From assembly GCA_016186645.1 (NCBI GenBank), contig JACPLF010000005.1:109995-173994 (forward strand): a DNA stretch of 64,000 nt. Reading direction: 5' to 3'. The notes below the pieces were generated by a model, which was given only the letters and a program-made list of their open reading frames with translations, had not been told where the DNA came from and searched no databases. This DNA is from Candidatus Levyibacteriota bacterium (lineage in GTDB: Bacteria; Patescibacteriota; Microgenomatia; Levybacterales; UBA12049). Of this stretch, positions 6,489-62,950 are shown one piece after another. A program made the position numbers and the translations under genes. Every line of letters begins with the position of its first letter. Positions within the stretch are counted from its first letter, which is position 1.

Positions 6489-7190
6489 TAGTTGTAAAAG
6501 TCGACTAAATGCTGGAAAATCCGTACCGTGATTCTGCTTTACAGAACAAACGGTTGCAGTATCTGACGCTACCATGTATTATGGTAATAATGCGATCAGT
6601 GCGGACAATCAGCAGGAAAGACTTGACGAAGAAAGAGCTAGGATTTTTCCTTGCTGGGTTTGTTGAAGGAGAAGGAAGTTTTAATGTCTCGTTACGGCGC
6701 AAGCCTGACTATAGACTCAAATGGCAAGCGGTAATGAGTTTTAATGTTTCGCAAAAAGACCCTACCTTATTAAAAATTTTAAAGGAGGAGCTAAAATGCG
6801 GAATTATTAAAACACGTAAAAGAGACAATCTATATTCCTTTGATGCAACAAATCCTAAGGATCTAATCCAGAAAGTCATTCCATATTTCAAAAAATATCC
6901 AGTTCAATCTGATTCTAAAAAGAATAATTTTTCTATTTTTTGCAAGATAGCAAAATTAATGGAAAAAGGGGAACACAGAAATTTGGCTGGATTAAGGTTA
7001 ATCCTAAAACTTCGAGAGAAAATAAACATTGGAGCAGGAAGAACAAGGAAATATGATATAGATGATGTTTTTTCTAAGTCAGGAATCCTCAGAGACTATA
7101 CGTCGACGTCCCGCTCAGCGGGACATGATATAGTCCGACCTCATGAACGATCATGAGACTCTGTAATCAATCAGAGTACCGCGATTAGCG
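6489..7190 (+). mobile_element. 23S intron 1, inserted after GTAACTATAA (E. coli ~1917); carries a LAGLIDADG homing endonuclease ORF
   Basis: The exon sequence breaks after gtaactataa and resumes with ctgttctaaggtagcgaa. The intervening sequence encodes the endonuclease. Confidence 0.7.
6509..7156 (+). CDS. LAGLIDADG homing endonuclease (intron-encoded)
   Basis: Contains LAGFVEGEGSF and a second, degenerate motif. The probable start is the ATG at 6590 (MRSVRTISRKDL...). Confidence 0.75.
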   Translation: MLENPYRDSALQNKRLQYLTLPCIMVIMRSVRTISRKDLTKKELGFFLAGFVEGEGSFNVSLRRKPDYRLKWQAVMSFNVSQKDPTLLKILKEELKCGIIKTRKRDNLYSFDATNPKDLIQKVIPYFKKYPVQSDSKKNNFSIFCKIAKLMEKGEHRNLAGLRLILKLREKINIGAGRTRKYDIDDVFSKSGILRDYTSTSRSAGHDIVRPHERS

Positions 7191-7787: not shown

Positions 7788-8186
7788 TAGTGTTTGGGCC
7801 CTTCAGTAAATAATTACTGTTGTAAATTTGGCTAATAACGGTGGACTCCTAATTGACTAAGTAAAGTTTCTCAAGTTATGATAAAGTCAATGGACAATAC
7901 CGTGGGAAGTCGCATTTTTCAGAACACTCGGAAGACTCGGTTTTCCAGGAACATCAGAATATCTGGCTATCAGATTGTCTGAGCCTCTGGTTTACTGAGT
8001 AATAATCTGAGTTTTCTGAAATATTGTTGACCCCGTAACGACTGATTCTTTAGCAAACTAAATTGAACCCTTAGTTTGTAATAGATGAGATTCCAGTTTT
8101 TGGAATCATACGCCGAACCCCTCTCTTTTTTCAAAAAAGTGGGGGTGATGATATAGTCTACACTTCTAGTAACAGAAGATTCATGT
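7788..8186 (+). mobile_element. 23S intron 2 (ORF-less), inserted after GATGTCGGCT; it contains repeat R1
   Basis: The exon resumes with catcgcatcctggggg...gggtcgggctgttcgcccgttaaagcggtacgcgagctgggttcagaacgtcgtaagacagt. Confidence 0.65.
7921..8022. repeat. R-family MITE-like element, copy R1 (inside 23S intron 2)
   Basis: Carries the terminal motifs cagaacactcggaagactcgg and ctgagttttctgaaat shared with R2 to R5. Confidence 0.6.
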
Positions 8187-8280: not shown

Positions 8281-9028
8281 AGACCTATAGCGTTAATTAC
8301 GCTATTAAATGAGCTGTCTATAAATCTAGCTATTTGCTGGAAACTCCGAGTATCTTCAACTACTTGACAAATGACTTATCGTAGAGATACGATATCTCTA
8401 TGTCTAGTGATAATGTTGGAAGTGCGGACAATCAGCAGGCAGCTGGGAAAGAAATTTCTAATGAGTATTTAGCAGGATTCACCGATGGTGAAGGGTGTTT
8501 CTATGTGGGATTTGGTAAGAGAAAAGACCTGCCGCTTAAATGGCAAGTAATTACCGAATTTCATGTAAGTCAAAATCCAGGCGGGAAAAATGTTTTGGAA
8601 GAGTTCAGAGAAAGGCTTGGTTGTGGCTATTTAAAGCCCAATCATGCAAAGAGCTTGAAAGACAAAACTTGGATTTTAATTGTGAAAGATAGAAAGGATT
8701 TAAAAGAAAAACTTATTCCTTTTTTTCAGCAACACAGATTGCACACAAGCAAACAAAAAGATTTTGAAATCTTTGTAAAAGTGCTTGAAAAAATTGAAAC
8801 GGGAAAGCATTTAACTAAAGATGGTTTTAAACAAATCGTTGAATTAGTTTTTGCCACTACCAGGGTAACAAATAAAAGATATTCAAAAGAATCACTTCTT
8901 TCCTAGAGCCTCAGAGACTACATGCTAGATGATGCATTGAATAGTGCGTCAAAGATATAGTCCGAACTGCATGGCGACATGTAGAGCGTATCAGAAATGC
9001 TACGTCATTCGTAAGAATGTAACATATT
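8281..9028 (+). mobile_element. 23S intron 3, inserted after GTCGTAAGACAGT (E. coli ~2595); carries a second LAGLIDADG homing endonuclease ORF
   Basis: The exon resumes with cggtctctatccagga...cccctagtacgagaggac. Confidence 0.7.
8400..8906 (+). CDS. LAGLIDADG homing endonuclease (intron-encoded)
   Basis: Contains LAGFTDGEGCFYV. It shares the 19-nt string agtgcggacaatcagcagg with the first endonuclease gene, in a different reading frame. Confidence 0.75.
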   Translation: MSSDNVGSADNQQAAGKEISNEYLAGFTDGEGCFYVGFGKRKDLPLKWQVITEFHVSQNPGGKNVLEEFRERLGCGYLKPNHAKSLKDKTWILIVKDRKDLKEKLIPFFQQHRLHTSKQKDFEIFVKVLEKIETGKHLTKDGFKQIVELVFATTRVTNKRYSKESLLS

Positions 9029-12083: not shown

Positions 12084-13583
12084 ATGAAATCAAAGGTTTC
12101 ATTTGTCTGTCAGGAATGCGGTTATGATTCTCCCCAGTGGCTTGGAAAATGTCCTGAATGCGGAATGTGGAACAGTTTAAAAGAAATTTCCCACTTCGTT
12201 GAAACTTCGCGGGACAAGCAAAATTCAATAGGAAATATCAATAAAAATATAACGCCGAAAAGACTTTCGGAAATAAAGTTTGAGAGAAAACAAAGATTAT
12301 TAACAGGGTTTTCGGAATTGGATACTGTTTTGGGCGGGGGAATTGTGAAGGGAAGCGCAGTTTTACTTGCCGGTGATCCGGGCATTGGTAAGTCAACTCT
12401 GTTATTGCAGCTGGCGTTAAATTTAGCATCAACCTCTTCTCAGAAAACTCAGAATACTCAGCATATCAGAAAATCTGATAATCAGAAGCTCAGACAGTCT
12501 GGCTTACTGAGTTTTCCGAGTGTTCCGAATGTTTTATATATTTCCGGGGAAGAGTCTGAAGAACAAGTCAAATTAAGAGCAGATAGAATTAATCCTTCGG
12601 CTCGCTCAGGATCCAAAACTCATTCAAATTTATTACTTCTCTCAAATACAAATACTGATTTGGTTTGTGGAATAATTGTTAAAGTTAAACCAATGCTTGT
12701 GATTATAGATTCAATCCAAACAATGGAATCGGAAAATGTTTCCGGTCTTTCCGGGTCTGTTGGGCAGGTTCGTTATTCTGCTTTTCAATTTATAAAAATC
12801 GCCAAAACATTTGGGATTCCAATTATTATGGTAGGTCATGTAACAAAAGAAGGAATGGTTGCCGGACCTATGGTTTTATCCCACATGGTTGACACTGTTT
12901 TATTTTTGGAGGGAGAAAAATTTACCGCAACCAGAATTTTGAGAAGTCTGAAAAATAGATTTGGTCCGGTTGACGAAGTTGGAATTTTTGCAATGGAAGG
13001 TGTTGGGGTAAAAGAATTAAACAGTCCCGAACAACTTTTTTTATCAAAACACAATGATAAGACTATTTCAGGAAGTATTTTATCTGTCACCATGGAAGGT
13101 ACAAGAGCATTCTTAATTGAAATTCAAGCACTTGTTTTGTCATCGAAAATTCCAATTCCAAGAAGAGTTGCATCCGGCATTGATTACAAAAGATTGGAAC
13201 TTTTATTGGCGGTTTTGCAAAAACATTGTAATATCCCGCTTTCGGGAATGGATGTTTTTGTAAATGTGATAGGTGGAATAAAACTTTCAGATCCGGCAAC
13301 TGATTTGGCAATTTGCCTTGCGATTATATCGAGTTTCAAAAATATTAATTTATCCCAAAAAGTTGGGATTGGAGAAGTAGGGCTTTTGGGAGAGCTTCGT
13401 AAAGCCAGTTCTTTGGAAAAACGCATAAAAGACGCGCGAAAATTGGGGTTTCGCGATATAATAAGTTCGGACAAATTCAAGACTTTAAAACAAGTTGTTA
13501 ATAGTTTAAGCAATGACCCTCCTTCATTAAAATTACGGAAGGGTCATGCCTCGAAGCTTGAGAAAGAGGCAGAAGGTAATTAA
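12084..13583 (+). CDS. radA: DNA repair protein RadA/Sms
   Basis: N-terminal C4 zinc ribbon, Walker A GDPGIGKST, the KNRFG motif and a Lon-like C-terminal domain. Confidence 0.9.
   Translation: MKSKVSFVCQECGYDSPQWLGKCPECGMWNSLKEISHFVETSRDKQNSIGNINKNITPKRLSEIKFERKQRLLTGFSELDTVLGGGIVKGSAVLLAGDPGIGKSTLLLQLALNLASTSSQKTQNTQHIRKSDNQKLRQSGLLSFPSVPNVLYISGEESEEQVKLRADRINPSARSGSKTHSNLLLLSNTNTDLVCGIIVKVKPMLVIIDSIQTMESENVSGLSGSVGQVRYSAFQFIKIAKTFGIPIIMVGHVTKEGMVAGPMVLSHMVDTVLFLEGEKFTATRILRSLKNRFGPVDEVGIFAMEGVGVKELNSPEQLFLSKHNDKTISGSILSVTMEGTRAFLIEIQALVLSSKIPIPRRVASGIDYKRLELLLAVLQKHCNIPLSGMDVFVNVIGGIKLSDPATDLAICLAIISSFKNINLSQKVGIGEVGLLGELRKASSLEKRIKDARKLGFRDIISSDKFKTLKQVVNSLSNDPPSLKLRKGHASKLEKEAEGN
12441..12532. 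repeat. R-family element, copy R4, inserted in-frame in radA (encodes ~33 extra aa, STSSQKTQNTQHIRKSDNQKLRQSGLLSFPSVPN)
   Basis: Nearly identical to the reverse complement of R3 (cagaaaactcagaatactcag ... tactgagttttccgagtgttccgaa). The insertion sits between Walker A and the downstream RadA core, where other bacteria have none. Confidence 0.65.
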
Positions 13584-16034: not shown

Positions 16035-16358
16035 ATGAATCCAAATGCAGGAGAACCGGCTAATCCGAGCGGAGGAGTAGCTTTAGCACCAGAACCTTCA
16101 ATTACTATACCTTCTACCAATATTGGGTCTTCAGATCAGGTAGCTAATTTGCAAGATGTAGTAGATGCTGCGAGAGAGGAAGCTGCTGCCAACCCGATAG
16201 ATCAGTTTAATGCTCAATTTGGCTCCGGGGCAACACCACCTGCTGCTGAAGTTCCAGAATTAAAGCCAGAAGAAAATCCGCAGGCGACTTTTGTGAAAGA
16301 TATTAAAGCCGCTGTTGAAAAGTTAGAAAAAGCAACTAAAGAGAAAGTGGCTGCTTAG
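16035..16358 (+). CDS. Hypothetical low-complexity Ala/Pro/Glu-rich protein
   Basis: A TTGACA...TATATAAT promoter lies about 6 nt upstream of the ATG, so the mRNA is probably leaderless. Confidence 0.4.
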   Translation: MNPNAGEPANPSGGVALAPEPSITIPSTNIGSSDQVANLQDVVDAAREEAAANPIDQFNAQFGSGATPPAAEVPELKPEENPQATFVKDIKAAVEKLEKATKEKVAA

Positions 16359-17082
16359 ATTTTTTTCGAAGTATCCAACCCAAAATTCCTGTTGGAATTA
16401 GAGAAAATAATATCAAAGATTCAGGACCTGTTGGAGGAGCGGTTTTTATGGGAACCGGGGAGAGGACAGGAAATCCTTGTTTGATGATTTTAGCTGGAGT
16501 TGTACTCTTTTTTTCTATGCAAAATTGACTGTTGTCTTGCCCGACAGCAGGATCAGGCACGAAAGCTTTTACTTGATTTACTAAACAAATAACATTTTCT
16601 GAAAAGGAAAGTTGATTCGTATCAACAATTCTTCCAAAGATATTAAAAGTTCTTGTTTCCGAAGGCATTAGATTGTCAGCGTCAAAGGCTAACGTTCTAG
16701 TGGTGCTGTCAAAACTACCGGGTCCCGAACTAAAACTAACGAACTGAGGGAATATGTCTTGTATATGGGCCTTTTCAATAACAGTTTTTCTATTATTTGT
16801 AATTAGAACTTGAAATGTTACGATAAAATCAGATTGATATTTTGCATCATTTGGGCCTAAATTGTCAACCATCTTATTTGTGTCAGGATTTAGCACTTTG
16901 CTGTCAACAGTTATGTCTTGGGTTTTTATACAAGTTGTCCCGCCGCCGTATATGGCTTGACAAGGCTCTTCCGCAAACGCCTTTTTTGAAAATTGAAAAT
17001 TGCTCGCCTCGCTGCGAAGCGGGAAAATTGAAAATTGAAAATTGAAAAAAATAATTACTAATACTGTAAATAGCGTTTTCAT
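16336..17082 (-). CDS. Secreted cell-surface protein with a C-terminal PTG-TM-basic tail, a candidate sortase substrate
   Basis: Signal peptide. The C-terminus reads KTAPPTGPESLILFSLIPTGILGWILRKKSK. The N-terminal region carries an inserted heptamer-repeat/hairpin element. Confidence 0.5.
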   Translation of the reverse strand: MKTLFTVLVIIFFNFQFSIFPLRSEASNFQFSKKAFAEEPCQAIYGGGTTCIKTQDITVDSKVLNPDTNKMVDNLGPNDAKYQSDFIVTFQVLITNNRKTVIEKAHIQDIFPQFVSFSSGPGSFDSTTRTLAFDADNLMPSETRTFNIFGRIVDTNQLSFSENVICLVNQVKAFVPDPAVGQDNSQFCIEKKSTTPAKIIKQGFPVLSPVPIKTAPPTGPESLILFSLIPTGILGWILRKKSKQPLSL

Positions 17083-19429: not shown

Positions 19430-19599
19430 TCAAATTTATCTCCCAAACAACTCTTCTTACCAAAAGAACTTTTGCCGAGAAACTAGGCATTTGCAGAGTT
19501 TACCTAGATGCTAAGGAAATTGTAGATTGATTTATATCAAACGAAGAATTCCTCGAGAGTCTGGGAAAAGGCTAATTACAGAGAATTAAGATTTACGAT

Positions 19600-19974
19600 T
19601 TAAGAATTAAGAATAGATTTTGTCTTCTGAATAAACCCTTGTAATAATTGATGAGTAAAATTTGCCTGTTTAACTAGATCATCTAAGTCTTTTTTGTTGA
19701 GATATCCCACACCTCTAGCAATAAGAATAAAATTCTTAAGTTCTGTTAATGATCCTTGAGCAGTAAAATAAAATTGAAGTTTTTCTTTATATGAATGTCT
19801 GCCAAAACCCTCTGCGATATTTGCTGTTATTGATGCCGCCGATCTTCTCATCTGATCGATCAAAGAATACATCTCTTGTTTCGGAAAGCCTTGTGTAATT
19901 TTATAAACAAGCAGTACTAATTTATGGCCTTCCTGCCAGACTTTCAAGTCTGTAAAAGACTTAATAGTGCTCAT
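19600..19974 (-). CDS. Four-helix-bundle protein (23S rRNA IVS protein / S23-like family)
   Basis: DLKVWQ...QMRRSAASITANIAEGFGR...AQGSLTEL matches the family signature. It is flanked by inverted 'gatttaagaat' repeats. Confidence 0.7.
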   Translation of the reverse strand: MSTIKSFTDLKVWQEGHKLVLLVYKITQGFPKQEMYSLIDQMRRSAASITANIAEGFGRHSYKEKLQFYFTAQGSLTELKNFILIARGVGYLNKKDLDDLVKQANFTHQLLQGFIQKTKSILNS

Positions 19975-20054
19975 TCTTAAATCTTACATCATAATTCTTA
20001 AATCTCCAAAAAGTTGCTTTTTGGATCCCTTTTTGCTACCATTTTTTCTCAACC

Positions 20055-25464: not shown

Positions 25465-28400
25465 TTAGTTCACAATAAGCCAGTTGAAAGGGATTGGGTT
25501 TTTGTTGGGGGATTGGACGCCGACAGTAAACTCCGCAGGTAATTGGCGCATTAAAAATGGCGATTGAGCGCTGGGCGTTCCCACAGGAGTTATATAAATG
25601 ACTGACTCGTTGGTTACAAGAGCGTTTTTGATAGTAAGTTCTGCGTAATAGGGAGCGATATTAGCAACCCCTGCTGAAGAACTTGCTATTGCCTCTGTTG
25701 CAGAAACAGCCAATACAGGCTGGACAAGGCTGAAGTTAAGTTTTGCAAAAGTACCGGAACCTGAGGAAATTAAATCGCCCTTTTGATTTATAGATAAAAC
25801 ACCAGACCCGCTTGCATTATTTACAACCAGATCTGAAGTCGGGAGAGGAGAAATAATATTTACAGCAAGTTTGCCTAAAACAGTTAAATCTCCTTGAGTC
25901 GAAATATTTCCGTGGGTATCAATATAAACAAGTCCTCCCATAATTGAAAGTCCGCCTTGCCTTAAGCTTTGCAAAGATAAATCAGTTCCTAATGTTTCTA
26001 TAGAATTTTGCGTAATAAACATTGTTCCTCCTATTGAAATATTTCCTACGACTGAAAGATCGGATAGAGATGTTGATCCAAATACCATAAGTCCTTGATT
26101 GAAAAGTGCCTGTTCTGCTTGAAGATTAGGTACATAAGCAATTTGAGCCGAGAAAGATGCGACATCTATGTAGTTAGATGAGAGATGAGATGTTAGAAAT
26201 GAAAAAGCTCTTAATGTGCCGCTTATTGATGCATTTTCAAACTGACCGTCAAGAGCTGATAACTGACCGCTGAATGATGCATCGCCTTCATTATTAATAG
26301 TAGTGATTGCAGAGCCGCTTGAGTTTTGAATTATGAATTGTGAATCATGAATCTCTGCCGATGGTGTTGCCAATTTGACGATTAATGATTTACCTAGAGG
26401 TGAAATAATATTGGCTGAGACCTGATCAGTTCTTATAATCGGAGAAATTATTCCTGCTTGCCCCCCGAAGTCTTGACGAAGGGGGGATTCTTGAATCACG
26501 TCAACAATATAATCCCTTAGATTCTGGCCGTTAACTATTATATTATCCGAGGTAACAATCAGTGAGTTTGCAATTATTTCTTGAGCGTTAAGAAGGCCGG
26601 TTTTAATATTAGCAGCTACAACTTTAAAAAATCCTCCGACATTACTTAAAGTTTCATTTTGAGAATCAACAGAATAGCCATTGGATCCTGTTTTATGAAT
26701 AATCAGGTCGCCATTATTAGCTAAATACGCGCCCGGATCAAACCAGGAGATATTTGCAAAAGTATTGATCTTTACAATCTTAATGATGTTTGGTTTTAAC
26801 GGAACATTAGGAAAGCCATCCTTGCTTCTATACTCTTTGCTATCAGGATCATAGAAGCCTACTACTTTTCCCTCATCTATAATGTCTAAATTTTCCAAAG
26901 CCTTTCCGACAATTTGTCCTGCTTTTGTTGCTTTTACTGCTACTCCGGGGATATCAGATGATGCTAACGCATCGCCGGCTTTAATCGTTCCGTTAGAGAT
27001 AGAGACGAGAGTATCAACTTGTCCGATAAGACCAACTGCTATTGAGCTATCACCAAGATTTTCTCCTCCCAGAAATGCTGGTCGCTCGGATGCAATACCC
27101 AAAATTTTACCATTATTATTATCACATGGAACAACAAAGCCATTATTTAGACAGACAACAGAGCCAAATTCTATTTTTAGATATTTATCTTTTTTGAAGT
27201 ATTCAGCAAAGTCAGCGACACCGGATGTTGCATAAGTCACGCCTTTCCCGCCACTTCCTTGAATAGATCCGACAATTCCAATTCCTGCTGTTTGAAAGCT
27301 CACAAAGTGATTTGTGCTGGCAACTGCGGTAGTTGAAGTATTGCCCAGTTTTATAACAAGACCATCCGCATCTGTTCCAGAACTTGTATTGTAAATTTGA
27401 GCAGCAGCGGTTGCTGATTGAGAATCTTGAATGTCTAGTTTTGATAATGGTGTCGTTGTTCCAATTCCTACGTTTCCCGTATTGATCCATGAATTATTTC
27501 CGCTAGTTCCGCTAAACTTAATCAAAGCAGAAGAAGTAGCAGTTGCTCCTAGTAGGATATCATCTGATATATTGGTTGGGCTGAGCGCAGCCGAAGCCCT
27601 TTGCCACGGTCCAAATGTTCCTGTTGAGGCAGAATATATGTTGTCAATATAAGCATTGTCCCAAGGCAGAGAAGCAGACCCTAGATTATTGGTTCCGCTT
27701 GTTCCGATCGGAACAAGACTTGAATCTTGTGCGACTCGACCGGTGAAGGTAATAGTGTCAGTGGCTGCATCTCCCAGCGTAACGCTTCCCTGTATATTGG
27801 CTGTTGCATTTCTTATAGTTATGGTGCCTGTTGACGCTCCAAGAACGAGTGTTGTTGCTGCTCCTCCAACATTTAAGGTAGTAACAGTTGAATTCAGAAG
27901 GTTGAAAGTTGTGGCTGTACTTGTCATATCTCCGCCGTTTATTCCAAGATCTCCGGCAAACAATCCAGCCCCATCGCTTTCAACACCAAATTTGGCAATA
28001 CCGGATGTACTGGCGCTAATCAGACTCCCTATTGAATTCTGATTGATATGAAAGGCTGATTGTGCACTTGTTGTTGCCAGTATAGCCACGTTATCATCGA
28101 ACTCTACCGCCCCTTTCATAAATGATACGTTGCTATTGTTTGTGCTATTCTGAATGGGTTTTGAAAGATCTATTTTTCCGACACCATCAGGCACGATTTC
28201 CACCCTGCTATTACTGCCTGGGACTGTTGTCAAAGACAATATGCTTCCGGAAAGCACGAATTGGCCGCCGATGGTCTGAAAAGTGTGCGCTTTTGAGCCT
28301 GCAATGCTAAGATTGCCCGAGGAATCCAAAGCCAAGACGACATTACTTACTTTGGTTGAATTTGTGATGGGTTCAAGTCCTTGTAATGTTTCAGCATTAC

Positions 28401-29892
28401 TTGCAAAAGGCACTGTAGCCAACTCTTGACGCGGACTAAGCTCTGGACCGCTCCCAATAGTAATTCCCAAGAAAAGCTGCGAATTCTGGCTAAAAAGAGT
28501 ATCAGGAATAGGGGTAGTCTTGCCAAGAAACACTGAGAATATCCCATCTGAATCAGGTTCTATCGAGTTGCTTTCCTGCCAAAGAAAGGCCGCACCTGAA
28601 GCATTTTGGTCATTATAGATAGAAAAGAGAATATTTGTCGCATTGGTTATAGGATTATCAGATGAGTCGGTCAGTTTTCCCTGAAAAGAAAGAATTCGGG
28701 GGGGAGCAAATGAAGCTGCAGCAAGTGTCGCTCCTTCTTTTTGGCTTTGTGCAAAAAGACTATCATATGTTCCAAAACCAAGCGCTGCAGCTACGATAAT
28801 AAGGATCGCAAAATGGAAATAATGGGTAAATGAGTATGAGTGATACTTTTTGTACCAGTTGGGTCGTACATGCCGAATATAATGCCAGACTCTTTTGTGG
28901 TTTGGTAAATAGCGTGTTGAAACGGTGAGGGGGGCATAAAACTCCTTCTTAATATTTGAAACCGGAATTAATGACTCAGAGTCAAATTTGGATTTCTTGA
29001 ATACTCTTTTTCCCGATGCTTTCCAAAATAAATACTGTGTACTCTCAACAGTTTTGACAAGCGGCAATATAAAGATGGCATCAAAGAGGAAATCAGCGCC
29101 ATTTATGAGCTTTTGCGTTAATCTCAGAGGTGGAAAAGAAGATCTGTTCGGAATACTCGGAAGACTCGGTGCGTCAGATTGCTCGCCTCGCTCAAGCTTC
29201 GGCGAAGAGGGTCTTATTATCTGATAGTCAGAATTTCTGATGGTCTGGATTTCGGAGTCTTCTGAGTTTTCTGAAATTAATTTCTGGTTTTTTGCCCAAG
29301 CAATATAATTCCTTAAAGACGAAAGTTTTCTATTGATAGTCCTGGGAGAAAATTTAGCCGCAATTAGTCTTTGCTTGTATTCTTCAATGGTTGTGTAATT
29401 GACTTTGTCTAGTAAATTTCTTTCCGTGACAACCCATGCGTATTTGATAAGCGTTACTTCCTCAAGCCACACGAAGAAACTTTTGATATCGTTGATGTAG
29501 TTTTTTATAGTAAGATTAGATTTTTTATACTCGTAAAGATAGCTTTTGAAATTCCTAAGCATCCATGGATCCGCCTCCGCCAAGGCTTCGGCGGACACAG
29601 TCCTTTTTTCAAGTGGATCTTGTGAGATTATTTTGTTTGTTTGGAGCAACTTAAAAAACTTACGCAAAGAGGAAAAATGTCTCTCCATGGAGCTTGGAGA
29701 AAGACTCCTTGCTTTTTTGTACTGATCTAAGATGACAAGGTTAACTTTTGATGGATCAAAAGGGGAATTAAATTCTTTTTCGAACCAGTTTATAAATTGT
29801 CCGATATCAGCTTTATAATTTTTGAAAGTAGAAAGAGATGGTGTATCTTTTTGATTTATCAGGAAATTAAGGAATTGTTGTAATAAATTCAT
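25465..29892 (-). CDS. Giant (1475 aa) cell-surface protein: N-terminal integrase-SAM-like repeats, one TM helix, then a long Ser/Thr/Gly/Asn-rich extracellular region
   Basis: Three core-binding-like repeats (FKNYKADIGQFINWF / IKNYINDIKSFFVWL / INRKLSSLRNYIAWA). TM helix HYFHFAILIIVAAALGFGTY. No recombinase catalytic domain. Confidence 0.6.
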   Translation of the reverse strand: MNLLQQFLNFLINQKDTPSLSTFKNYKADIGQFINWFEKEFNSPFDPSKVNLVILDQYKKARSLSPSSMERHFSSLRKFFKLLQTNKIISQDPLEKRTVSAEALAEADPWMLRNFKSYLYEYKKSNLTIKNYINDIKSFFVWLEEVTLIKYAWVVTERNLLDKVNYTTIEEYKQRLIAAKFSPRTINRKLSSLRNYIAWAKNQKLISENSEDSEIQTIRNSDYQIIRPSSPKLERGEQSDAPSLPSIPNRSSFPPLRLTQKLINGADFLFDAIFILPLVKTVESTQYLFWKASGKRVFKKSKFDSESLIPVSNIKKEFYAPLTVSTRYLPNHKRVWHYIRHVRPNWYKKYHSYSFTHYFHFAILIIVAAALGFGTYDSLFAQSQKEGATLAAASFAPPRILSFQGKLTDSSDNPITNATNILFSIYNDQNASGAAFLWQESNSIEPDSDGIFSVFLGKTTPIPDTLFSQNSQLFLGITIGSGPELSPRQELATVPFASNAETLQGLEPITNSTKVSNVVLALDSSGNLSIAGSKAHTFQTIGGQFVLSGSILSLTTVPGSNSRVEIVPDGVGKIDLSKPIQNSTNNSNVSFMKGAVEFDDNVAILATTSAQSAFHINQNSIGSLISASTSGIAKFGVESDGAGLFAGDLGINGGDMTSTATTFNLLNSTVTTLNVGGAATTLVLGASTGTITIRNATANIQGSVTLGDAATDTITFTGRVAQDSSLVPIGTSGTNNLGSASLPWDNAYIDNIYSASTGTFGPWQRASAALSPTNISDDILLGATATSSALIKFSGTSGNNSWINTGNVGIGTTTPLSKLDIQDSQSATAAAQIYNTSSGTDADGLVIKLGNTSTTAVASTNHFVSFQTAGIGIVGSIQGSGGKGVTYATSGVADFAEYFKKDKYLKIEFGSVVCLNNGFVVPCDNNNGKILGIASERPAFLGGENLGDSSIAVGLIGQVDTLVSISNGTIKAGDALASSDIPGVAVKATKAGQIVGKALENLDIIDEGKVVGFYDPDSKEYRSKDGFPNVPLKPNIIKIVKINTFANISWFDPGAYLANNGDLIIHKTGSNGYSVDSQNETLSNVGGFFKVVAANIKTGLLNAQEIIANSLIVTSDNIIVNGQNLRDYIVDVIQESPLRQDFGGQAGIISPIIRTDQVSANIISPLGKSLIVKLATPSAEIHDSQFIIQNSSGSAITTINNEGDASFSGQLSALDGQFENASISGTLRAFSFLTSHLSSNYIDVASFSAQIAYVPNLQAEQALFNQGLMVFGSTSLSDLSVVGNISIGGTMFITQNSIETLGTDLSLQSLRQGGLSIMGGLVYIDTHGNISTQGDLTVLGKLAVNIISPLPTSDLVVNNASGSGVLSINQKGDLISSGSGTFAKLNFSLVQPVLAVSATEAIASSSAGVANIAPYYAELTIKNALVTNESVIYITPVGTPSAQSPFLMRQLPAEFTVGVQSPNKNPIPFNWLIVN
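29146..29278. repeat. R-family element, copy R2, in-frame within the giant surface-protein gene (encodes a low-complexity linker)
   Basis: Carries gttcggaatactcggaagactcgg ... tctgagttttctgaaatt. Confidence 0.6.
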
Positions 29893-30556
29893 CTAGATAC
29901 GAAATTATACAGATTATACAAATTATTTCTCTATACAATTAGAATAGACAATAGTTTGAATCTTGTCAATAGGTAAATTAAAGAAAAATTGATATTTTAC
30001 GATATGCTTTGATACGCTTAGAAGAAAACATTATTTCTGTGAAATGTTAGTGAAAACAATTTTCTAGCCGTGAAAACACTGAGATTGGAAAAATACCCGT
30101 ATACCCAGTGAATATCTGGCAAGAATGAGTATATCAAAGAGTCTCAATCTTATTTATTGATTAGTTCAAATTTTGTTAAAATTTTAGCCTCTCTCTTACA
30201 ATTTTATTCCAAAACAAAATTACTAATTAGCAGATGATTCCAATTAGTGATAGGCAATCCAAGGTTTTTATTTGGCCTTTAAATAAAGCGCAAATTTTTA
30301 AGAGATAATTGATTATTAAGATTATCCATGATTGTTCCTGAGAAAAAACAGGCTGTTTTAAGTTGTGAGTATTTCTCGTTATTCGCCCAAAAGATATCTC
30401 TAAAACTAAAAATTGACTTTTCACAACAAGTTTAAAGAAACAGGCGTTTTTCACAGAGCTGACTGGGGAAAATTGTGCTTTTAGGAGGAATTGAGCTGAA
30501 AGCGATTTATACCTACGATTATACAAGCGTTCGACTTTTTTCCGAGAGTCTAAGAT

Positions 30557-31621
30557 TCACTTCTTTATATGAGCACGTACTCTATTTACAACTACAATAG
30601 CACCAATCAGTACAATCACAATCACTATCATTCCCATGAGGGGAAAAGCAAAGAAATGAATAGTTTTAGTAAAGCTTGGCCCTTCATCGGAAAGGCTGAT
30701 ATTAAGAGTTGCGGTATAAAATCCCAAAAGAAAGTCTTCGTTCCATAAAAGCTTAGGGTTTTGGAAACTAAGATTAGAATTTTTCTCGGTATCCTCAGAT
30801 ATCAGCTCCTGGATATAAGCTGTATTCGGAATAGCACGAACACTTTCAGATAGAATGTTCACCTTCATTAGGTCTAGCCTGCCAATGTTTTGACCAAACA
30901 TATTTTTTATCAAAATTTCACCCTTTGGTTTTATAATTTGCTTGCCATTATTCTTAATTCTGAGAGTAAAAGGCACAGGGCCGCTCTCGTAGAAAAGTCC
31001 TGATGAGAATTCTTCAATAACCCCATCAGGTATTTCTTTTGCTCCAATTGACAATAGAATATTAGACGCAATTCCGAGCTGGCCTAAAGAGCTGGTTGAG
31101 ACAGGAGTCGCTGTATTTTGAGAAACGAATATAATGGAGAAATAATGGTCTCGCCCGACTTCGCCTGCGACACCTGCTTGATTTGCTTGTGATTGATTGG
31201 ACGAAGTCGCTGGCGGGCGGGTTGATGCTGGAGTACCTTGCGAAGTATTTACGTTCAAGGTTAAATCTTTTTTCTGTTTTGGACCTAGTGCTATACCTTC
31301 AATAGGAATTCCGCTATCCAGAAGCTGGATATTTTGTGTTAGAAAAGGACTTGGCGAGCTTAAATATTGTAGCTCTCCGTTCTCAGATTTTGCCTTGAAG
31401 GGGACAAGTAATATTTGGAGTTCTACCAGGTTTTCGCTTTTGTTTTGGATTGATAAAGTGCTTGTGGCAACTGATGGGGGCAGGGCATTAATTTCTATAA
31501 CAGAAGGATCCAGGCTCAGCGATAAAGCCGAAGCCTCGGCTTTAGAAATAAGAAGTGAGAAATGAGAAATGAGAAACAAGACAATCAAAAGTCTAATGCA
31601 ATCTCTACTAATATTTTTCAT
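30557..31621 (-). CDS. Secreted protein with a C-terminal TM anchor and basic tail (354 aa)
   Basis: Signal peptide. The C-terminus reads FAFPLMGMIVIVIVLIGAIVVVNRVRAHIKK. Same strand as the giant gene. Confidence 0.5.
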   Translation of the reverse strand: MKNISRDCIRLLIVLFLISHFSLLISKAEASALSLSLDPSVIEINALPPSVATSTLSIQNKSENLVELQILLVPFKAKSENGELQYLSSPSPFLTQNIQLLDSGIPIEGIALGPKQKKDLTLNVNTSQGTPASTRPPATSSNQSQANQAGVAGEVGRDHYFSIIFVSQNTATPVSTSSLGQLGIASNILLSIGAKEIPDGVIEEFSSGLFYESGPVPFTLRIKNNGKQIIKPKGEILIKNMFGQNIGRLDLMKVNILSESVRAIPNTAYIQELISEDTEKNSNLSFQNPKLLWNEDFLLGFYTATLNISLSDEGPSFTKTIHFFAFPLMGMIVIVIVLIGAIVVVNRVRAHIKK

Positions 31622-31642
31622 CTTTCACCTCTCATCTTTCAT

Positions 31643-32410
31643 TTAGAAATTGGGAACTGCAATATAGGTAATAATATTGGTGTAAATTCCTTCTGCCTGA
31701 TTGCCGGGGATGTTTACTTTGTAGGAAATTCTAACGTCTTTATTTTTTGAGCCTATTCCTGACATCATAGACTGCTCTGATTGCCCATTGGAATGATCTG
31801 CGAAGTGTTTGTAGAAATTGGGTTTTGCAAATGAACTATTGCAATCAAAGCCAATTACATTGTCACAGCGATATCCCAATCCATAAGTCAGAGTATTTGT
31901 CCATTCTCGCGCATTTTCTTCACTACACTGGCCATCATCGCAGGTTGTATTGGGAATAGTTGTATTCTCACTTTGAAGCGGATGGTTCTCAAAAGCCAAA
32001 ACAGAATACCCATATGCAGGAAGGCTGTAAATATTAAGATTTGCTGTGCGAACGATTGGATTAGTTGGGCTTAAAGAGCCAAAATCAATTAAATCTGATG
32101 ACAGGGAAATAGAAAAGGCGAGTGTTGAATCAATATTTTCAATTCCCGATCTTATTTTGAAATTTACACCTTCTGAAACAACAGGACTGAGGTCTCCGAC
32201 CGTAGATCGCACTTTGTAATCTGTATTAGTTGTAGTGCCGGAGATTGAATTAAACCCCTGCATCTTAACTTTGTAGTCCTTGTTGGACATTGTCTGCGCG
32301 CTCGCGGTCGGCAAAAATAAGCCAATAAACAAATAAACAAATAACCCAATAGCCATGTAGCCAATTTTAAACCTGCCCGTCCGGCAGGCGGGTCTTAAAT
32401 CATTTATCAT
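31643..32410 (-). CDS. Secreted hypothetical protein (255 aa), first gene of the surface-protein operon
   Basis: N-terminal signal peptide ending ...LPTASAQT. Confidence 0.45.
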   Translation of the reverse strand: MINDLRPACRTGRFKIGYMAIGLFVYLFIGLFLPTASAQTMSNKDYKVKMQGFNSISGTTTNTDYKVRSTVGDLSPVVSEGVNFKIRSGIENIDSTLAFSISLSSDLIDFGSLSPTNPIVRTANLNIYSLPAYGYSVLAFENHPLQSENTTIPNTTCDDGQCSEENAREWTNTLTYGLGYRCDNVIGFDCNSSFAKPNFYKHFADHSNGQSEQSMMSGIGSKNKDVRISYKVNIPGNQAEGIYTNIITYIAVPNF

Positions 32411-32509
32411 AAATCAATCGTAGATAATCTTGGGTAAAAACGCAATATCTCGGCAGCTTGACAAAGACCTATTTTGGAAATAAGATATATCTTGTAGGAG
32501 TAGATTATT

Positions 32510-33343
32510 ATGGCTGAAATTAGTGGAAGTCCAGACTTTGAGCAGCGACCAACGCCCAGCAGGGAAAGTGAATTATTAGGAGCGATCAAAGAAATCGAAG
32601 TTCCGTTTATGGAAGCCTTGAAGCGTGATTACGGAGAGGAACGTGGTTGGAGAATGTGTGCTCCTGCGTCAATTGCTCTTTCAAGGATTCTTTCTGCTCG
32701 TACTGGCGTACCGATTGGGAGAGATATTCCAGGAGAGCACGTTGAGCTTACTGTGGGCATATTTGATCCTAAAACTGCCCCTGACAGACTCAGCAGGATT
32801 GAGGAACAGACTTATATCCGTTACTTTACAGGGGATGGAAACGTCTACTATATAGACCCAATATACGGATTATTGATGCAAACTAGACAACAGCTTAGTG
32901 AGGCAATTCAAGTTGAAAAGTATCCAGTAACGGAAGTAGATCAAGCCCTGATTCGGGAACATCACTTATATCCATTTGACCCAAATCACGACGGATTGGA
33001 CACTTCAGAAGCCTTTGCGCCACATGGAACTTCTGCTGAGGAAAGGAAATCATACATAGCTGAAGTTATTCCTGCTCTCAATGATGAGAGAGCGACTATG
33101 TCAGAATTTGTCGCAGATTCAGGTCGAGTTATGATTACTGATTGGCAGAAAACTGAGGCAATAATCAAAGAGTTTGCTCCCAGCTGGAAACCAGAGCGAT
33201 TAGTCAGAATGGAAAGATTTATTGCTGCAATTCAAGCAATGAATCGTGGAAAGCAATACCCAACCACCCTTTTAAGATTTGCAAAAAGAGGTGCGGGCCC
33301 AAATCCAGATGTTAATAATTTTAAGAAGGTATTGAGGGGGTAA
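32510..33343 (+). CDS. Hypothetical protein encoded by a GC-rich (about 47 percent) gene with a strong SD, a candidate horizontal acquisition
   Basis: TTGACA-N17-TAAGAT promoter and AGGAG SD. Conserved Cys (GWRMCAPAS) and His (EHVEL, REHHLYPFDPNHDG) residues. Confidence 0.5.
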   Translation: MAEISGSPDFEQRPTPSRESELLGAIKEIEVPFMEALKRDYGEERGWRMCAPASIALSRILSARTGVPIGRDIPGEHVELTVGIFDPKTAPDRLSRIEEQTYIRYFTGDGNVYYIDPIYGLLMQTRQQLSEAIQVEKYPVTEVDQALIREHHLYPFDPNHDGLDTSEAFAPHGTSAEERKSYIAEVIPALNDERATMSEFVADSGRVMITDWQKTEAIIKEFAPSWKPERLVRMERFIAAIQAMNRGKQYPTTLLRFAKRGAGPNPDVNNFKKVLRG

Positions 33344-33521
33344 AAAACAGAAATTATCACCCTAACACCTAGAACATCTTAGAAATACTACTGGGACGGT
33401 CTTCGGTTTTATAATTAAGTTTTTCACCATTTTACCTTCGGATACATTTAAATCCCAAAAGAACTGTGTTATACTAAATAAAATTTCTAATTACTAATTT
33501 CTAATTTCTAAATAAATCCAA

Positions 33522-36230: not shown

Positions 36231-36308
36231 TGACTATACCAATATGCTAATCCATACTAATAATACGAATTAGTGTAATTAGCATGAATTCGTATATTAG
36301 AATCGTTT

Positions 36309-36911
36309 ATGGATTTTACTGGCCTGCTTGATAAGTATCTGCCTCTCCTTAAAAAGCATTGGCTTCCTCTGAGCTTGGCATCCTTGGGAATGATATTCTT
36401 TGCATATGGTTTGATAGGGTTATTCTTTGTTAACCAATCAGCCTCGGAAGATATAGTTTTTGAGTCCTCTGAAGAACAGAGTTCTAAGGAAGCAAAAACT
36501 ATTTTTATAGACATAGAAGGGGCTGTGGTGAGGCCGGGATTATATAAATTGCCTCAGGATTCAAGGATTCAAGATGCTCTTGTTGCGGCTGGCGGTTTGG
36601 CTGCTTCTGCTGACAGAAATTTCGTTGCTAAAAATATTAATTTAGCAATCAAACTAACGGACGGCGCTAAAATATATATACCGAATGTTGGGGAAGCAGT
36701 CAGCGGGGCATCAGCGCTAAATGCTTCCTCTCAAGTTAATATTAATACTTCCTCGCAATCTGAGCTGGAGGCATTGCCGGGCATTGGTCCTGTAACTGCT
36801 CAGAAAATCATTGGGAATAGGCCCTACGGCTCTGCAGACGAGCTTCTAAAGAGGAAGATAGTAGGGAGTAAGGTATTTGATCAGATCAAAGATAAAATCA
36901 CGGTATACTAA
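36309..36911 (+). CDS. comEA: Competence protein ComEA (membrane anchor, SLBB, tandem helix-hairpin-helix)
   Basis: ELEALPGIGPVTAQKIIGNRPYGSADEL helix-hairpin-helix. SLBB-like IFIDIEGAVVRPGLYKL. Confidence 0.8.
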   Translation: MDFTGLLDKYLPLLKKHWLPLSLASLGMIFFAYGLIGLFFVNQSASEDIVFESSEEQSSKEAKTIFIDIEGAVVRPGLYKLPQDSRIQDALVAAGGLAASADRNFVAKNINLAIKLTDGAKIYIPNVGEAVSGASALNASSQVNINTSSQSELEALPGIGPVTAQKIIGNRPYGSADELLKRKIVGSKVFDQIKDKITVY

Positions 36912-36935
36912 TTGCTAAATTGTTAAATTGCTATA

Positions 36936-52819: not shown

Positions 52820-53521
52820 ATGACAAGGAAAGAGACGATAAGATATATAATCATCCAGAGCATCGGGAATTTTTTGGTGCTTTTTGCTATTTTCGGAGTT
52901 CTTGCAACTTTTGGTCCGGCACTTTATTACGAAGCTCAATACAGAATTATTCAAATTCGAGGAGTTCATTTTAGCGTCGCTCTGTCGACGCAACAGACAA
53001 CAGTTAACAAACAACAAACAACTAGCGTTTCTTCAGGAGGTTTTGCAGATGTTTTGTCCGGTCCGATAGAGCAAATTCTGACACCAATTGATCCATTGTT
53101 TAATATTTTGATACCCAAGATTGGGGCAAATGCAAGAGTTTTTCCCAATGTTGACCCAGCTAATCAAGATGCTTTTGTCCCTATTTTGCAAAAAGGAGTA
53201 GCGCATTCGCAAGGGACATTTTTCCCGGGACAAGCAGGCAATATTTATTTATTTGCTCATTCAACAGATAATTTTTGGGATGTCGGAAGATATAACGCAA
53301 TATTTTATTTGTTAAAAGATTTAAGTAAGGGCGATGAGGTGGTGGTTTTCTTCCAAAATGTAAGACACAATTATCTCGTAACAGATTCCAAAATCATAAA
53401 TCCTCAAGAAGTTTCATATATAACAAAGGCCGAGACGGGGAAAGAGCTGTTAGTGCTTCAGACGTGCTGGCCCCCCGGTACTACTTGGCAACGTCTCATG
53501 GTTTTTGCTGAGCCTAAATAA
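52820..53521 (+). CDS. Sortase (membrane-anchored transpeptidase)
   Basis: N-terminal TM helix. Catalytic LQTCWP (TLxTC-type) and a conserved His in LFAHS. Confidence 0.7.
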   Translation: MTRKETIRYIIIQSIGNFLVLFAIFGVLATFGPALYYEAQYRIIQIRGVHFSVALSTQQTTVNKQQTTSVSSGGFADVLSGPIEQILTPIDPLFNILIPKIGANARVFPNVDPANQDAFVPILQKGVAHSQGTFFPGQAGNIYLFAHSTDNFWDVGRYNAIFYLLKDLSKGDEVVVFFQNVRHNYLVTDSKIINPQEVSYITKAETGKELLVLQTCWPPGTTWQRLMVFAEPK

Positions 53522-53523
53522 CT

Positions 53524-53622
53524 TCGGAACACTCGGAAAACTCAGTGAATCAGAATTTCAGGAGGTCTGACTGTCTGATTATCTGATAGTCTGGCGTACT
53601 GAGTATTCTGAGTTTTCTGGAA
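53524..53622. repeat. R-family element, copy R3 (intergenic; most complete terminal inverted repeats)
   Basis: Ends ggaacactcggaaaactcag / ctgagttttctggaattac. It exactly fills the gap between two convergent genes. Confidence 0.65.
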
Positions 53623-54822
53623 TTACTTTAGGCCAATGGTATATAGATTTGGGGAGATAGTGGGGTTGCCAAGATCAGTCAAAATCAAGATTTTTGATCC
53701 GTCAGGCCACGCAAATACATAGTTATCGATAAATGGTCCTGCATACACGGTCGTTCGATTTAGCCCGTCATAATCCATAATGCTTATCTTTTTGTCATTA
53801 ACGTAGATCAAATGTTTGGAATCTGGGAACCAGCTTAAGGGGAGAGTTGGAGGCATTGAATCAAATATCTTAAAATTCTTGTCTTCTTTTATGTCATAAA
53901 CATATATGGCATCTTTGGTGATATTTCTTTCTTGCGGAGTTGGATTTGTGCCTATCAATGGAGGATTGATGATTAAGGGCAGACCTGCAAATCGAGTGGC
54001 TGTATAAAGAATTTTTGTTTCATCTTCAGACCAGGACAAAATTTTGAAATTCTCTTTAATAAGACTTTGCAATTTTGCTTTAAATCCTAAAAGCTGAGAT
54101 TTGTCTTGCTGTTCTTTTTGCTGAATCCATGAAGCATTGAGATTGTCCAAGGTTGCAGTTACATCCTGAGGATTTTCATTAAAGCTGGTTTTTAAAAGAT
54201 AAGTTGTATGAAAATTTTGCGTTGCTGCTATTGTTGCGACAAGCTCTTTGGCATCAGGAGACCATGAAAGTGAAGCATTGGAAAAATTGTCAATTGTGTT
54301 GTCTGCTATTTGCGTTGAGGAGCTTTGCAAAGTTAGAATTGGCCGTAATCCCATGTCCAATATATAAACTCCATTCTTGCGCGGATCTTCGAGATCCGAT
54401 ACGGTATAGGCTATTTTGGTACGCGTTGGATCTAGAACGGGACTACTGATTCCTATGTCAGTAACATTGTCAAGCTTTGGAGCTGTTGGTATCAAAAGTG
54501 CGAAAGCGCTTGACACAACTTCTTTGTCAATTTTAATAATTTTGCGCCATGGAAAATAGCCTGATTTAGCAATCTTTACGTCATATTCCCCAGGGGAAAG
54601 GCTAACTGTGTTGTTAGTAGCAGAAGTTAAATGATTGTTAATATATATTCCGGCCCCATCTGGCTGAGATGTTGCTGCCAAAAGTCCTGTGCCAAGGATG
54701 CCTATTTTCCCGTCTCCAAAGCTGAAATTATATCCCTTGCCATACGAAATAACACCTATTGTTACGATGAGTAAAAAAAGAGAAGTGGCAATATAAGCTA
54801 TCTTCTTTTTCATTGAGCCCAT
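53623..54822 (-). CDS. PEGA-domain plus TolB-like beta-propeller protein
   Basis: PEGA motif region (DGAGIYINN...GEYDVKIAKSGYFPW). Repeated WSPD/WFPD/AWPDGSK propeller signatures. Confidence 0.55.
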   Translation of the reverse strand: MGSMKKKIAYIATSLFLLIVTIGVISYGKGYNFSFGDGKIGILGTGLLAATSQPDGAGIYINNHLTSATNNTVSLSPGEYDVKIAKSGYFPWRKIIKIDKEVVSSAFALLIPTAPKLDNVTDIGISSPVLDPTRTKIAYTVSDLEDPRKNGVYILDMGLRPILTLQSSSTQIADNTIDNFSNASLSWSPDAKELVATIAATQNFHTTYLLKTSFNENPQDVTATLDNLNASWIQQKEQQDKSQLLGFKAKLQSLIKENFKILSWSEDETKILYTATRFAGLPLIINPPLIGTNPTPQERNITKDAIYVYDIKEDKNFKIFDSMPPTLPLSWFPDSKHLIYVNDKKISIMDYDGLNRTTVYAGPFIDNYVFAWPDGSKILILTDLGNPTISPNLYTIGLK

Positions 54823-62059: not shown

Positions 62060-62950
62060 ATGAAGAAATTATTAAGATCCCGCGATATATTGCTTTTGGG
62101 TTTGACTCATGCTTTAGATCTATTCGAAGAGATAAAAGATCCGTTGCATCTTGTAAGCAAAAGCTATGAGAACATGTATGGATGGGTACCCAAACAATAC
62201 AAAAAACATCAGTTTAATCACTTGGTCTGGAGGACATTAAGAGCGGGTTATATAGAAAAAATAGAGAAGGAAGGCAAAATGTATATTCGGATAACATCCC
62301 AAGGAGCAAAAATGGCTCAAAGAGATTTCCCGCTATTGCATTTGCAAAATAAGAAGTGGGATGGCAAGTGGAGGATTGTTATGTTTGACATTGCAGAAAT
62401 TCAGAAAAGGAAAAGAGATTATTTACCCCGTTACCCAATGCCCCATCCGTTAGGATGCGGGTTTCTAATGGCGTGAAACGAAAATTCAATAATGCCCCGA
62501 CCATAAGGTCGTGGGTAACGGGGTTTACGAGAAAAACTGAAAGAGTTAGGGTTTGGCATGCTTCAAGAATCTGTTTTCATAACTCCTCATGATATTATCA
62601 GAGATTTTTCAGAGTATATAGAGAATGCTGGTTTGCAAAATTCGGTCGATATTCTTGAGGCTACATATATTTTAGGAGACTCAAAAGAGTTAGCAAAAAG
62701 AATATGGAAGATAGAAGAGCTGAACGAAAAGTATCTAGAAATTTTGCAAAAGGCACAAAAAATGAAAAATAGCCATTTAATCACAACACGCGGCCGCACG
62801 AAACAGTTAAATAGCTTAAATAGTAAAGTAAAGGAAATAAAAGAAAAATATGTGAAGGTGTTATTGGGTGATCCTTTTTTGCCCTCAGCGCTTCTTCCAA
62901 AAAATTACAGTCGTGATCAGGCAGGAAGGCTTATAAAAGAACTATTTTAA
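62060..62950 (+). pseudogene. PaaX-family regulator gene split into two ORFs by a 98-nt MITE
   Basis: ORF 62060..62476 and ORF 62558..62950 are in the same frame. Removing the element plus one TTTA copy restores ...KWDGKWRIVMFDIAEIQKRKRDYLREKLKELGFGMLQESVFITP..., the PaaX W-x-G-x-W...GFGxL signature. Confidence 0.55.
62426..62523. mobile_element. 98-nt MITE with perfect 12-bp terminal inverted repeats (CCCCGTTACCCA / TGGGTAACGGGG) and a TTTA target duplication
   Basis: TTTA flanks both ends. Element plus duplication is 102 nt (3n), but it carries in-frame TGA and TAA stops. Confidence 0.6.

Follow-up and report, generated by a model that had tools for sequence, protein, structure and literature searches.

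Within a stretch of 64,000 nucleotides (nt) from a Candidatus Levyibacteriota bacterium (contig JACPLF010000005.1, positions 109,995 to 173,994; hereafter the window), an unbroken open reading frame (ORF) of 1475 codons (25465..29892, minus strand) encodes a giant protein, and part of this frame consists of a copy of a DNA repeat family (R) whose other members lie in non-coding DNA and in other genes. The question raised by this copy (R2; 29147..29276, minus strand) is how a dispersed palindromic repeat came to be translated in the middle of a protein, and what the resulting peptide contributes to it. Most probably, R2 is a copy of a dispersed palindromic family resembling transposable elements of the miniature inverted-repeat type (MITEs) that is translated as a disordered, passive tether in the hypervariable spacer of a membrane-anchored fibre protein. 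Taken alone, the R2 linker is a modest curiosity, yet it exemplifies a phenomenon that is common in genomes of the candidate phyla radiation (CPR) and seems not to have been described before.

The R family is a long imperfect palindrome of about 100 nt (range, 85–137 nt), whose ends consist of 9-nt units of the TCRGAAAAC type and whose interior is made up of 8–9-nt units in varying number, with TC(A/G)GA in one arm and TC(T/C)GA in the other. A profile built from the first copies found by repeat finding recovered exactly four copies in the 64-kb window (nhmmer; E values of 1e-22 to 4e-26), and the 23-nt arm pattern (consensus CYGAGTNTTCYGAGTNTTCYGRA and its complement) matched the window seven times, compared with 0.00 matches expected from 100 shuffles. 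R copies possess terminal inverted repeats but no coding capacity. Both of the inverted termini of the family (TTCRGAAnACTCRGAAnACTC... and ...GAGTnTTCYGAGTnTTCYGAA) are found in R2 (E = 2e-25, 84 bits), the arms of which are located at 29147–29169 (minus strand) and 29253–29275 (plus strand).

As proposed in a preliminary description of the sequence, R2 is contained in-frame in the giant gene, where it represents codons 206–249, and the peptide quoted there is indeed present (ISENSEDSEIQTIRNSDYQIIRPSSPKLERGEQSDAPSLPSIPN; ISENSE...SIPN). In an AlphaFold model of the protein with 37 homologues, the predicted local distance difference test score (pLDDT) of residues 206–250 is 40–56, whereas that of the flanking domains exceeds 90. 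The low scores, together with the dispersed copies in non-coding DNA and other genes, agree with the suggestion that a mobile repeat provides a disordered spacer. Peptides that would be diagnostic of a translated R2 linker are NSDYQIIRPSSPK (tryptic) and LISENSEDSEIQTIR (internal or junction).

Among the three remaining copies in the window, one lies in-frame in radA (12439..12529, plus strand; ORF 12084..13583), and two are non-coding (strand unspecified). The first of the latter (7917..8021) caps a peripheral hairpin of the group I intron that interrupts the 23S rRNA gene. The intron is a 421-nt insertion at position ~2552 of the large-subunit rRNA model and was recognized by cmscan as Intron_gpI (7770–8179; 38 bits, which is below the gathering threshold), with a 90-nt insert in a loop. 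The other copy (53522..53622; 86.5 bits) exactly fills the space between the stop codons of two convergent genes, identified by Pfam as encoding a sortase (52820..53521) and a PEGA-domain protein (53623..54822), and forms the best hairpin among the non-coding R copies (fold z = −6.7). Because the copies sit in an intron, an intergenic gap, and genes, and are read in three frames (SENSENSE, QKTQNTQ, or LRKLGKLG) on either strand, their similarity exists at the level of DNA and not of protein. The registers differ also between RadA (..SQKTQNTQHIRKSDNQ..LSFPSVPN) and the giant protein (..SENSEDSE..IRNSDYQ..SLPSIPN).

The minimum-free-energy fold of R2 pairs both arms into one long imperfect hairpin. 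Owing to a nested insert, the strength of this hairpin (z = −3.3) falls short of that seen in the other copies (−5.6 to −8.5). R2 is colinear with the canonical R copy in the orthologue L122 but has exactly 30 extra nt at its centre. This segment (29180..29209, ±2 nt; TGCTCGCCTCGCTCAAGCTTCGGCGAAGAG on the plus strand) is a GC-rich hairpin mini-element that adds 10 codons (approximately PSSPKLERGEQ). Its left arm is the 14-mer TTGCTCGCCTCGCT, which recurs together with its partner GCGAAGCGGG (GCGAAG(C/A)GGG) at 17000–17024 of the window, in L005 and L118, and inside the linker of the orthologue L125; by chance, the 14-mer would be expected to recur in 64 kb only ~5e-4 times. The alignments indicate that the R2 linker is a composite of a canonical R of ~100 nt and a nested GC-rich hairpin, both in-frame, and that the hairpin was probably gained later. 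A GC-rich hairpin of the window (CTCGCCTCGCTGCGAAGCGGG; 16985–17050), with GAAAATT heptamer repeats on either side, is situated at the 5′ end of a gene for a DUF11-domain protein (ORF 16336..17082, minus strand). It falls in the would-be signal-peptide region (..FNFQFSIFPLRSEASNFQFSK..) and represents either an in-frame repeat or a mis-called start codon.

The protein that accommodates R2 is composed of two core-binding domains of the XerC/XerD type, the R linker, a juxtamembrane module, one transmembrane (TM) helix, and a fibre-like ectodomain of ~1090 residues. The similarity of its N-terminal region to the SAM-like domains of integrases, first noticed in the translated sequence, holds in profile searches: Pfam Phage_int_SAM_1 (PF02899) matches two stretches with 62 bits (cut-off 22.3), the NCBIfam models of XerC and XerD match twice with their first ~90 positions only (far under cut-off), and the best solved structures found by Foldseek are the N-terminal domain of XerD (1a0p), 3nrw, and other core-binding domains of Xer and IntI proteins. 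Domain 1 (aa ~3–97; 29602..29886, minus strand) corresponds to positions 1–91 of the NCBIfam XerD model (aa 5–97), and domain 2 (aa ~112–205; 29278..29559, minus strand) includes a match to PF02899 at aa 114–204; pLDDT is >90 in both. The two are duplicates of each other (hhalign probability, 99.7% for residues 1–100 vs 105–207). The third such repeat that had been postulated was rejected; residues 250–352 align with either domain at a probability of only 0.1–0.2%.

This region (aa 251–353; 28834..29142, minus strand) constitutes a juxtamembrane module with conserved columns in the alignment of 37 sequences (FPPLRL..., NIKKEFYAPL, RPNWYKKYH), for which AlphaFold predicts a confident long helix (254–292) and a second stretch of low confidence (298–321). 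The placement of the linker between a SAM-like domain and the TM helix is correct insofar as R2 follows the second SAM-like domain, but it is the conserved module that precedes the membrane. There is only one TM helix, as expected: aa ~354–381 (28750..28833, minus strand) are the sole strongly hydrophobic stretch, with the only Kyte–Doolittle windows >1.6, and coincide with a predicted helix (354–387). The K/R-rich flank of this helix suggests, by the positive-inside rule, that the N-terminus is cytoplasmic and the C-terminal ~1090 residues are external. The protein shares with the tyrosine recombinases XerC and XerD the N-terminal SAM-like four-helix core-binding domain, here in a tandem pair, but differs from them in lacking the catalytic domain (R-H-R-Y site; no match to Phage_integrase in the giant protein even at E ≤ 1), having a linker, a TM helix, and a fibre-like ectodomain instead. 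Its public label, “site-specific integrase”, is a misnomer. In the middle of the protein (aa 878–944; 27061..27261, minus strand) lies a partial match to a Peptidase_G2/intramolecular-chaperone-type domain (PF11962; 31.4 bits vs a cut-off of 25), which covers only profile positions 33–99 of 228, and aa 390–461 match Bdello_MAT_N of NCBIfam (the N-terminus of a Bdellovibrio fibre) under its cut-off. In tail-fibre and endosialidase-type proteins, the autoproteolytic chaperone domain (Peptidase_G2/S74) is complete and C-terminal.

Homologues of the giant protein (42, mostly from Levybacteria) share this architecture and are annotated as “site-specific integrase, partial”; a metagenome scan added 19 closer relatives. 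The gene order comEC-comEA-leuS-(two or three unknown genes)-giant gene is kept in three genomes of Levybacteria, namely in the window (25465–38995), L117, and L118. In the window and in L119, a TPR/O-antigen-ligase-like membrane protein is encoded downstream of the giant gene.

Each orthologue has a variable spacer of ~29–65 aa between the motifs ...NRKLSSLRxYxxWAKxQGLI and YSxFPPxRLxQK. The linker is not absent from orthologues but is often formed by a different palindromic element: many R-less orthologues have the palindrome GTCATGCTGAATTxATTTCAGCATC...GTTCAGAATGAC at this site (peptides SSGHAEFISASQ...VQNDK; z = −4 to −5.6), and that of L118 contains tandem units of TTCAGA and AATCGAAC without a palindrome. 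The syntenic orthologue L117 has an unrelated spacer of 33 residues and no R-like DNA (no nhmmer match at E ≤ 10). R-less orthologues do not encode the R2 peptide; had they done so, the preliminary reading would have been refuted. Because a variable spacer is present in every orthologue and often stems from another palindrome, R2 appears to have replaced or occupied a pre-existing spacer rather than created one.

At the linker site, R itself is restricted to the window and a single further lineage (74% identical). Three contigs of that lineage (L122–124) have a canonical 100-nt copy (83.5 bits) whose nucleotide position and frame agree with those of R2; R is lacking in L120 (79% identity), L121, and the other relatives. 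Between the window and L122, identity across R is 72–78% and resembles that of the flanking gene. A recent recombination of the R linker between the two lineages is not supported, since the flanks are no more alike than the rest of the gene. The same site and frame in two lineages this far apart, the element's flank-like identity, and the arms that are still recognizable are compatible with long retention of a domesticated element. R2 would then be kept for a specific role, such as an mRNA hairpin that pauses translation while the N-terminal domains fold or before the membrane is reached, or a docking or phosphorylation site in SENSE.../...PSIPN. Such a role is nevertheless unlikely, considering that most orthologues use unrelated sequence of other length at this site, that R2 tolerated a nested insertion of 10 codons, and that its peptide is of low complexity and low predicted order.

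If R2 is a passive spacer, the events would be simple. The element would reside between the cytoplasmic core-binding domain 2 and the juxtamembrane module, would be transcribed and translated together with the gene, and would yield a hydrophilic, disordered tether of ~44 residues; its insertion would be tolerated because this position needs only a flexible spacer. The same reasoning would hold where R is found in-frame within surface loops of other proteins, such as RadA, DnaX, NrdJ, and MurD.

Beyond the window, R occurs widely among Levybacteria and other Microgenomates. A scan with the arm pattern, restricted to one genome per species, yielded at least 116 loci. Those listed comprise many Levybacteria, Collier-, Davies-, Curtiss-, and Chisholmbacteria, Parcubacteria/Paceibacterota, and some metagenome-assembled genomes with evidently wrong labels, and none of them shows long DNA similarity to the window. 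Matches in Prevotellaceae and Bacteroidaceae extend weakly over half an arm only. At least 56 near-full R copies were detected by nhmmer among the loci listed; 25 of the 56 are located in frames that are open for at least 40 codons on each side, although two of these frames look spurious. NCBIfam models match both sides of the R insert in DnaX, class II ribonucleotide reductase (NrdJ), YchF, RecG, GalT, MurD, ATP-dependent DNA ligase, and DprA. With radA, dnaX, murD, and nrdJ, essential genes are among the hosts. Further hosts are LeuRS, an O-antigen-ligase/TPR protein, and the ectodomain of the giant-protein orthologue in L104 and L119; in the latter (Levybacteria chromosome OY970292.1, 10001–14627), the ectodomain has its own in-frame R at 13729–13828, in a region shared with L104.

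The genes for class II ribonucleotide reductase of a Collierbacteria genome contain two or three in-frame R copies each (L004, 1669–1774 and 2280–2413; L060, 4563–4670 and 7592–7681). In MurD, two copies occupy the same site but are read in different frames of the element (L040, 4200–4300, VSEHSENS...; L069, 1959–2067, LRILGKLG...), which implies either independent insertions or frame-shifting indels inside the element. The leuS gene of L087 contains, besides its R copy, two similar low-complexity inserts (..QLKTDQPNSDNRQQKTD.. and ..KQKTVKPKSDNRQQRTDN..) that look like another in-frame repeat family.

Whereas only ~15% of the frames of non-coding R copies are free of stop codons, each of the 19 genic copies with good support can be read without a stop in the frame of its host and preserves the frame downstream. 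A pre-adaptation of R to be open in most frames was rejected; on average, 1.2 of the six possible frames are open across all copies, 0.9 in non-coding copies, and 1.4 in random genomic segments. The open-frame constraint on genic copies is understandable only if ribosomes read through R, and suggests that these copies are translated and not removed. The opposite view, that the hairpin is removed from the RNA by an RNase III-type processing, or that the mRNA is cleaved, with the result that no R peptide is produced or that expression of the gene is lowered, draws on the R copy in an rRNA intron and on R arms that flank PF05635 genes in the manner of classical 23S rRNA intervening sequences, which are excised by RNase III (PMC4990558). 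It is quite improbable, because no mechanism is known that would rejoin the two pieces of mRNA resulting from excision, and because stop-free, frame-preserving copies are needed only if ribosomes read through them.

RadA provides evidence for the mobility of R. In comparison with RadA of S. pneumoniae (5lkm), residues 117–145 of the protein encoded in the window are unmatched and form a clean insertion of 29 aa immediately behind the Walker-A helix. Of ~120 close orthologues (P0043–P0162), 71 have no insert and keep 16 residues between GIGKST and YxSGEE, whereas ~45 (about 40%) have inserts of 15–45 residues at this single loop, which is a hot spot of insertion. These belong to at least six palindrome-derived families: R (six orthologues, one with a remnant), FIVHG..STMNNEP, VVLxExKDP..ILRSAQNDN, RGPAxxFPPASAR..RAVGSP, VSKVPKVSK..SPSDTxDT, and STDYRL..TVDSSQSTVD. 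At the DNA level, the site is empty in L165, filled by R in the window and in L164 (77 bits), and filled by a palindrome of GTATCAAAG units in L163.

Such clean empty and filled orthologous sites are difficult to reconcile with an independent origin of each copy, be it as a recurrent low-complexity protein motif or by replication slippage of TCNGA units. The varying number of 8–9-nt units in the interior (85–137 nt in total) and the tandem units without a palindrome in the linker of L118 would fit such a process. However, the terminal arms of ~23 nt are conserved over many genomes and contexts, with none expected by chance, and the copies are palindromic as wholes, extend to non-coding DNA, and differ in the frame in which they are read, which makes this explanation highly improbable. 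Least credible of all is a decaying or mis-assembled gene with the repeat marking a pseudogene or an assembly join, for although repeats are classic sites of assembly errors and the orthologue in the complete Levybacteria genome L119 is annotated as a pair of overlapping genes (677 and 868 aa), all 1475 codons are open in the window, similarity to orthologues extends in the same frame on both sides of R, and an independent assembly (the three contigs L122–124) has R at the same place.

Several points weigh against R2 being a translated mobile element with a purely passive function. Its hairpin (z = −3.3) is inferior to those of non-coding copies (−6.7, −8.5), and may be decaying rather than serving a function at the DNA or RNA level. 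The case for mobility comes from the distribution of R and from presence/absence patterns; the usable flanks of R are merely A/T-rich and show no consistent target-site duplication, and neither a transposase nor a parent autonomous insertion sequence sharing the terminal inverted repeats of R was identified, the larger forms that were found carrying a PF05635 gene. The link between R and PF05635 is based on 4 of at least 116 loci, which were themselves chosen for the R arm. Translation through the hairpin is suggested by constraints on the sequence. Finally, a neighbour-joining tree misfits a single simple insertion, because the window groups with the R-less L120, whereas the R-bearing L122 branches outside; no relatives closer than 79% protein identity were found. 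Tree order and the identity with L122 therefore point to one of two histories, namely an old insertion with several later replacements, or two hits at one site.

A possible source of R is indicated by four loci (L001, 1552–2005; L017, 1156–1722; L034, 1806–2280; L057, 1825–2304), where R arms bracket a gene of the family PF05635, the four-helix-bundle protein of 23S rRNA intervening sequences. In these cassettes of ~450–570 nt, the arms are ~350–440 nt apart and enclose a gene for a protein of 113–121 residues (E = 1e-19 to 5e-23); the arm units of PF05635 cassettes include TCAGAAAAC repeats. Inverted repeats of short periodic units bracket all seven PF05635 genes examined, and in four cases these are R arms. 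The window has its own unit of this kind (19581..20006, minus strand; gene 19600..19974, Pfam E = 9e-35), whose 34-nt inverted repeats (29/34 matches) belong to a family with 7-nt units of the AGAATTAAGATTT type that is distinct from R and has solo copies at 34347–34382 and 45207–45242. The PF05635 gene of L074 is bracketed by the GTATCAAGA family, the unit of which occurs also in-frame in RadA of L163. The possibility that the cassettes with R arms are true rRNA intervening sequences was rejected, since the loci are intergenic and without rRNA. Because the design of the PF05635 cassettes matches that of classical intervening sequences, R looks like an ORF-less derivative of a cassette of this type, whose full form would hold a PF05635 (S23p) gene between R arms.

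The closest analogues of R appear to be the Rickettsia palindromic elements, which are dispersed elements of ~100–150 bp that are unusually often inserted in-frame into unrelated housekeeping genes (Ogata et al. 2000, summarised in PMC10969869). In a review of 2024, they still stand out as the prime example of MITE-like insertions that are in-frame (PMC10969869). R resembles them in being a short palindrome in a small genome, in occupying intergenic, RNA-gene, and in-frame genic sites, and in adding a hydrophilic peptide where the fold can accommodate it. It differs in its hosts (Levybacteria and other CPR bacteria), in its length (85–137 nt) and arms of 8–9-nt TCNGA units, in the competition of several unrelated palindromes for the same protein sites, in the in-frame nesting, and in the larger form with a PF05635 gene. 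Because the host of R belongs to the Levybacteria and not to the Rickettsiales, homology of the sequences is not expected; the likeness is one of behaviour.

Intervening sequences of 23S rRNA with an S23p ORF, as in Coxiella and Leptospira (PMC4990558), have in common with the R cassettes an inverted-repeat stem, short tandem units, and a PF05635 gene of ~115–120 aa. That of Coxiella, which RNase III excises, is 428 nt long, with a terminal stem of 28 bp and tandem heptamers beside the S23p ORF (PMC4990558). By contrast, the R cassettes are intergenic and not located in rRNA, most R copies, including R2, have no ORF, and R2 resides in a protein gene; the rRNA-linked copy lies in the loop of a group I intron and not in helix 25 or 45. 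The bacterial MITEs Correia, ERIC, BOX, and RUP (PMC10969869) are likewise non-autonomous, have terminal inverted repeats, number tens to hundreds of copies, occasionally form in-frame fusions, and sit in terminator-like locations between convergent genes, but in the case of R, no parent insertion sequence with a transposase was found and a target-site duplication is not established. Repetitive extragenic palindromic (REP) elements and REPINs with their RAYT transposases share with R the dispersed hairpin repeats and a small, low-copy gene flanked by the element, but the gene flanked by R is PF05635 and not RAYT, and R enters coding regions. To our knowledge, REPs are generally absent from coding regions, and PF05635 proteins have no known HUH/Y1 motifs. 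No description of palindromic elements inside CPR genes was found in the full-text literature searched, although absence there is no proof of novelty.

Other repeats and insertions are present in the window. The 23S rRNA gene (4259–9427) is heavily interrupted by insertions that resemble group I introns and include LAGLIDADG ORFs (6509..7156 and 8400..8906), and it contains a palindromic insertion of 109 nt (9219–9328) that is 90–94% identical to 4629–4750 in its 5′ part. A repeat family with 7-nt units (TCTATTTTCTACC type), which belongs to the class of short-period palindromes, has inverted copies just upstream of radA (11938–12082) and at 47750–47880. Another palindromic family (CATTTAAC...GCGATCGC...GTTAAATG) is present in five copies (3050–3098, 18943–18991, 57195–57243, 62000–62048, and 62767–62815), two of which adjoin a PaaX-like gene that seems to be divided between two ORFs (62060..62476 and 62558..62950).

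Until now, palindromic selfish DNA that lies in-frame in housekeeping genes has been regarded as peculiar to Rickettsia (PMC10969869). The same behaviour is now encountered, and at high frequency, in a separate, very large, and poorly understood bacterial radiation. New are the presence of several unrelated palindrome families at the same protein sites, the nesting of elements with preservation of the frame, and the physical link to PF05635 cassettes, and the architecture of the giant protein, a core-binding pair without a catalytic domain that is membrane-tethered to a long fibre, is itself undescribed. The phenomenon explains many of the odd low-complexity inserts in CPR proteins and warns against reading them as lineage-specific functional domains; mobile DNA can supply ready-made disordered linkers. 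It also offers a clue, open to testing, to how intervening sequences arose and to the role of S23p, a protein with no function known to us after 30 years. We tentatively propose, as a possibility that is less probable than not, that S23p cassettes with inverted repeats of short units may be the parents of the palindrome families in CPR bacteria (R, the GTATCAAAG family, and others), whose ORF-less hairpins would spread and repeatedly land in, or replace one another at, a few permissive hot spots within essential proteins, in introns of rRNA, and between genes. If this were true, 23S rRNA intervening sequences and the in-frame palindromes of the Rickettsia type would represent a single kind of mobile element in two guises, and S23p would be its mobility or maintenance factor.

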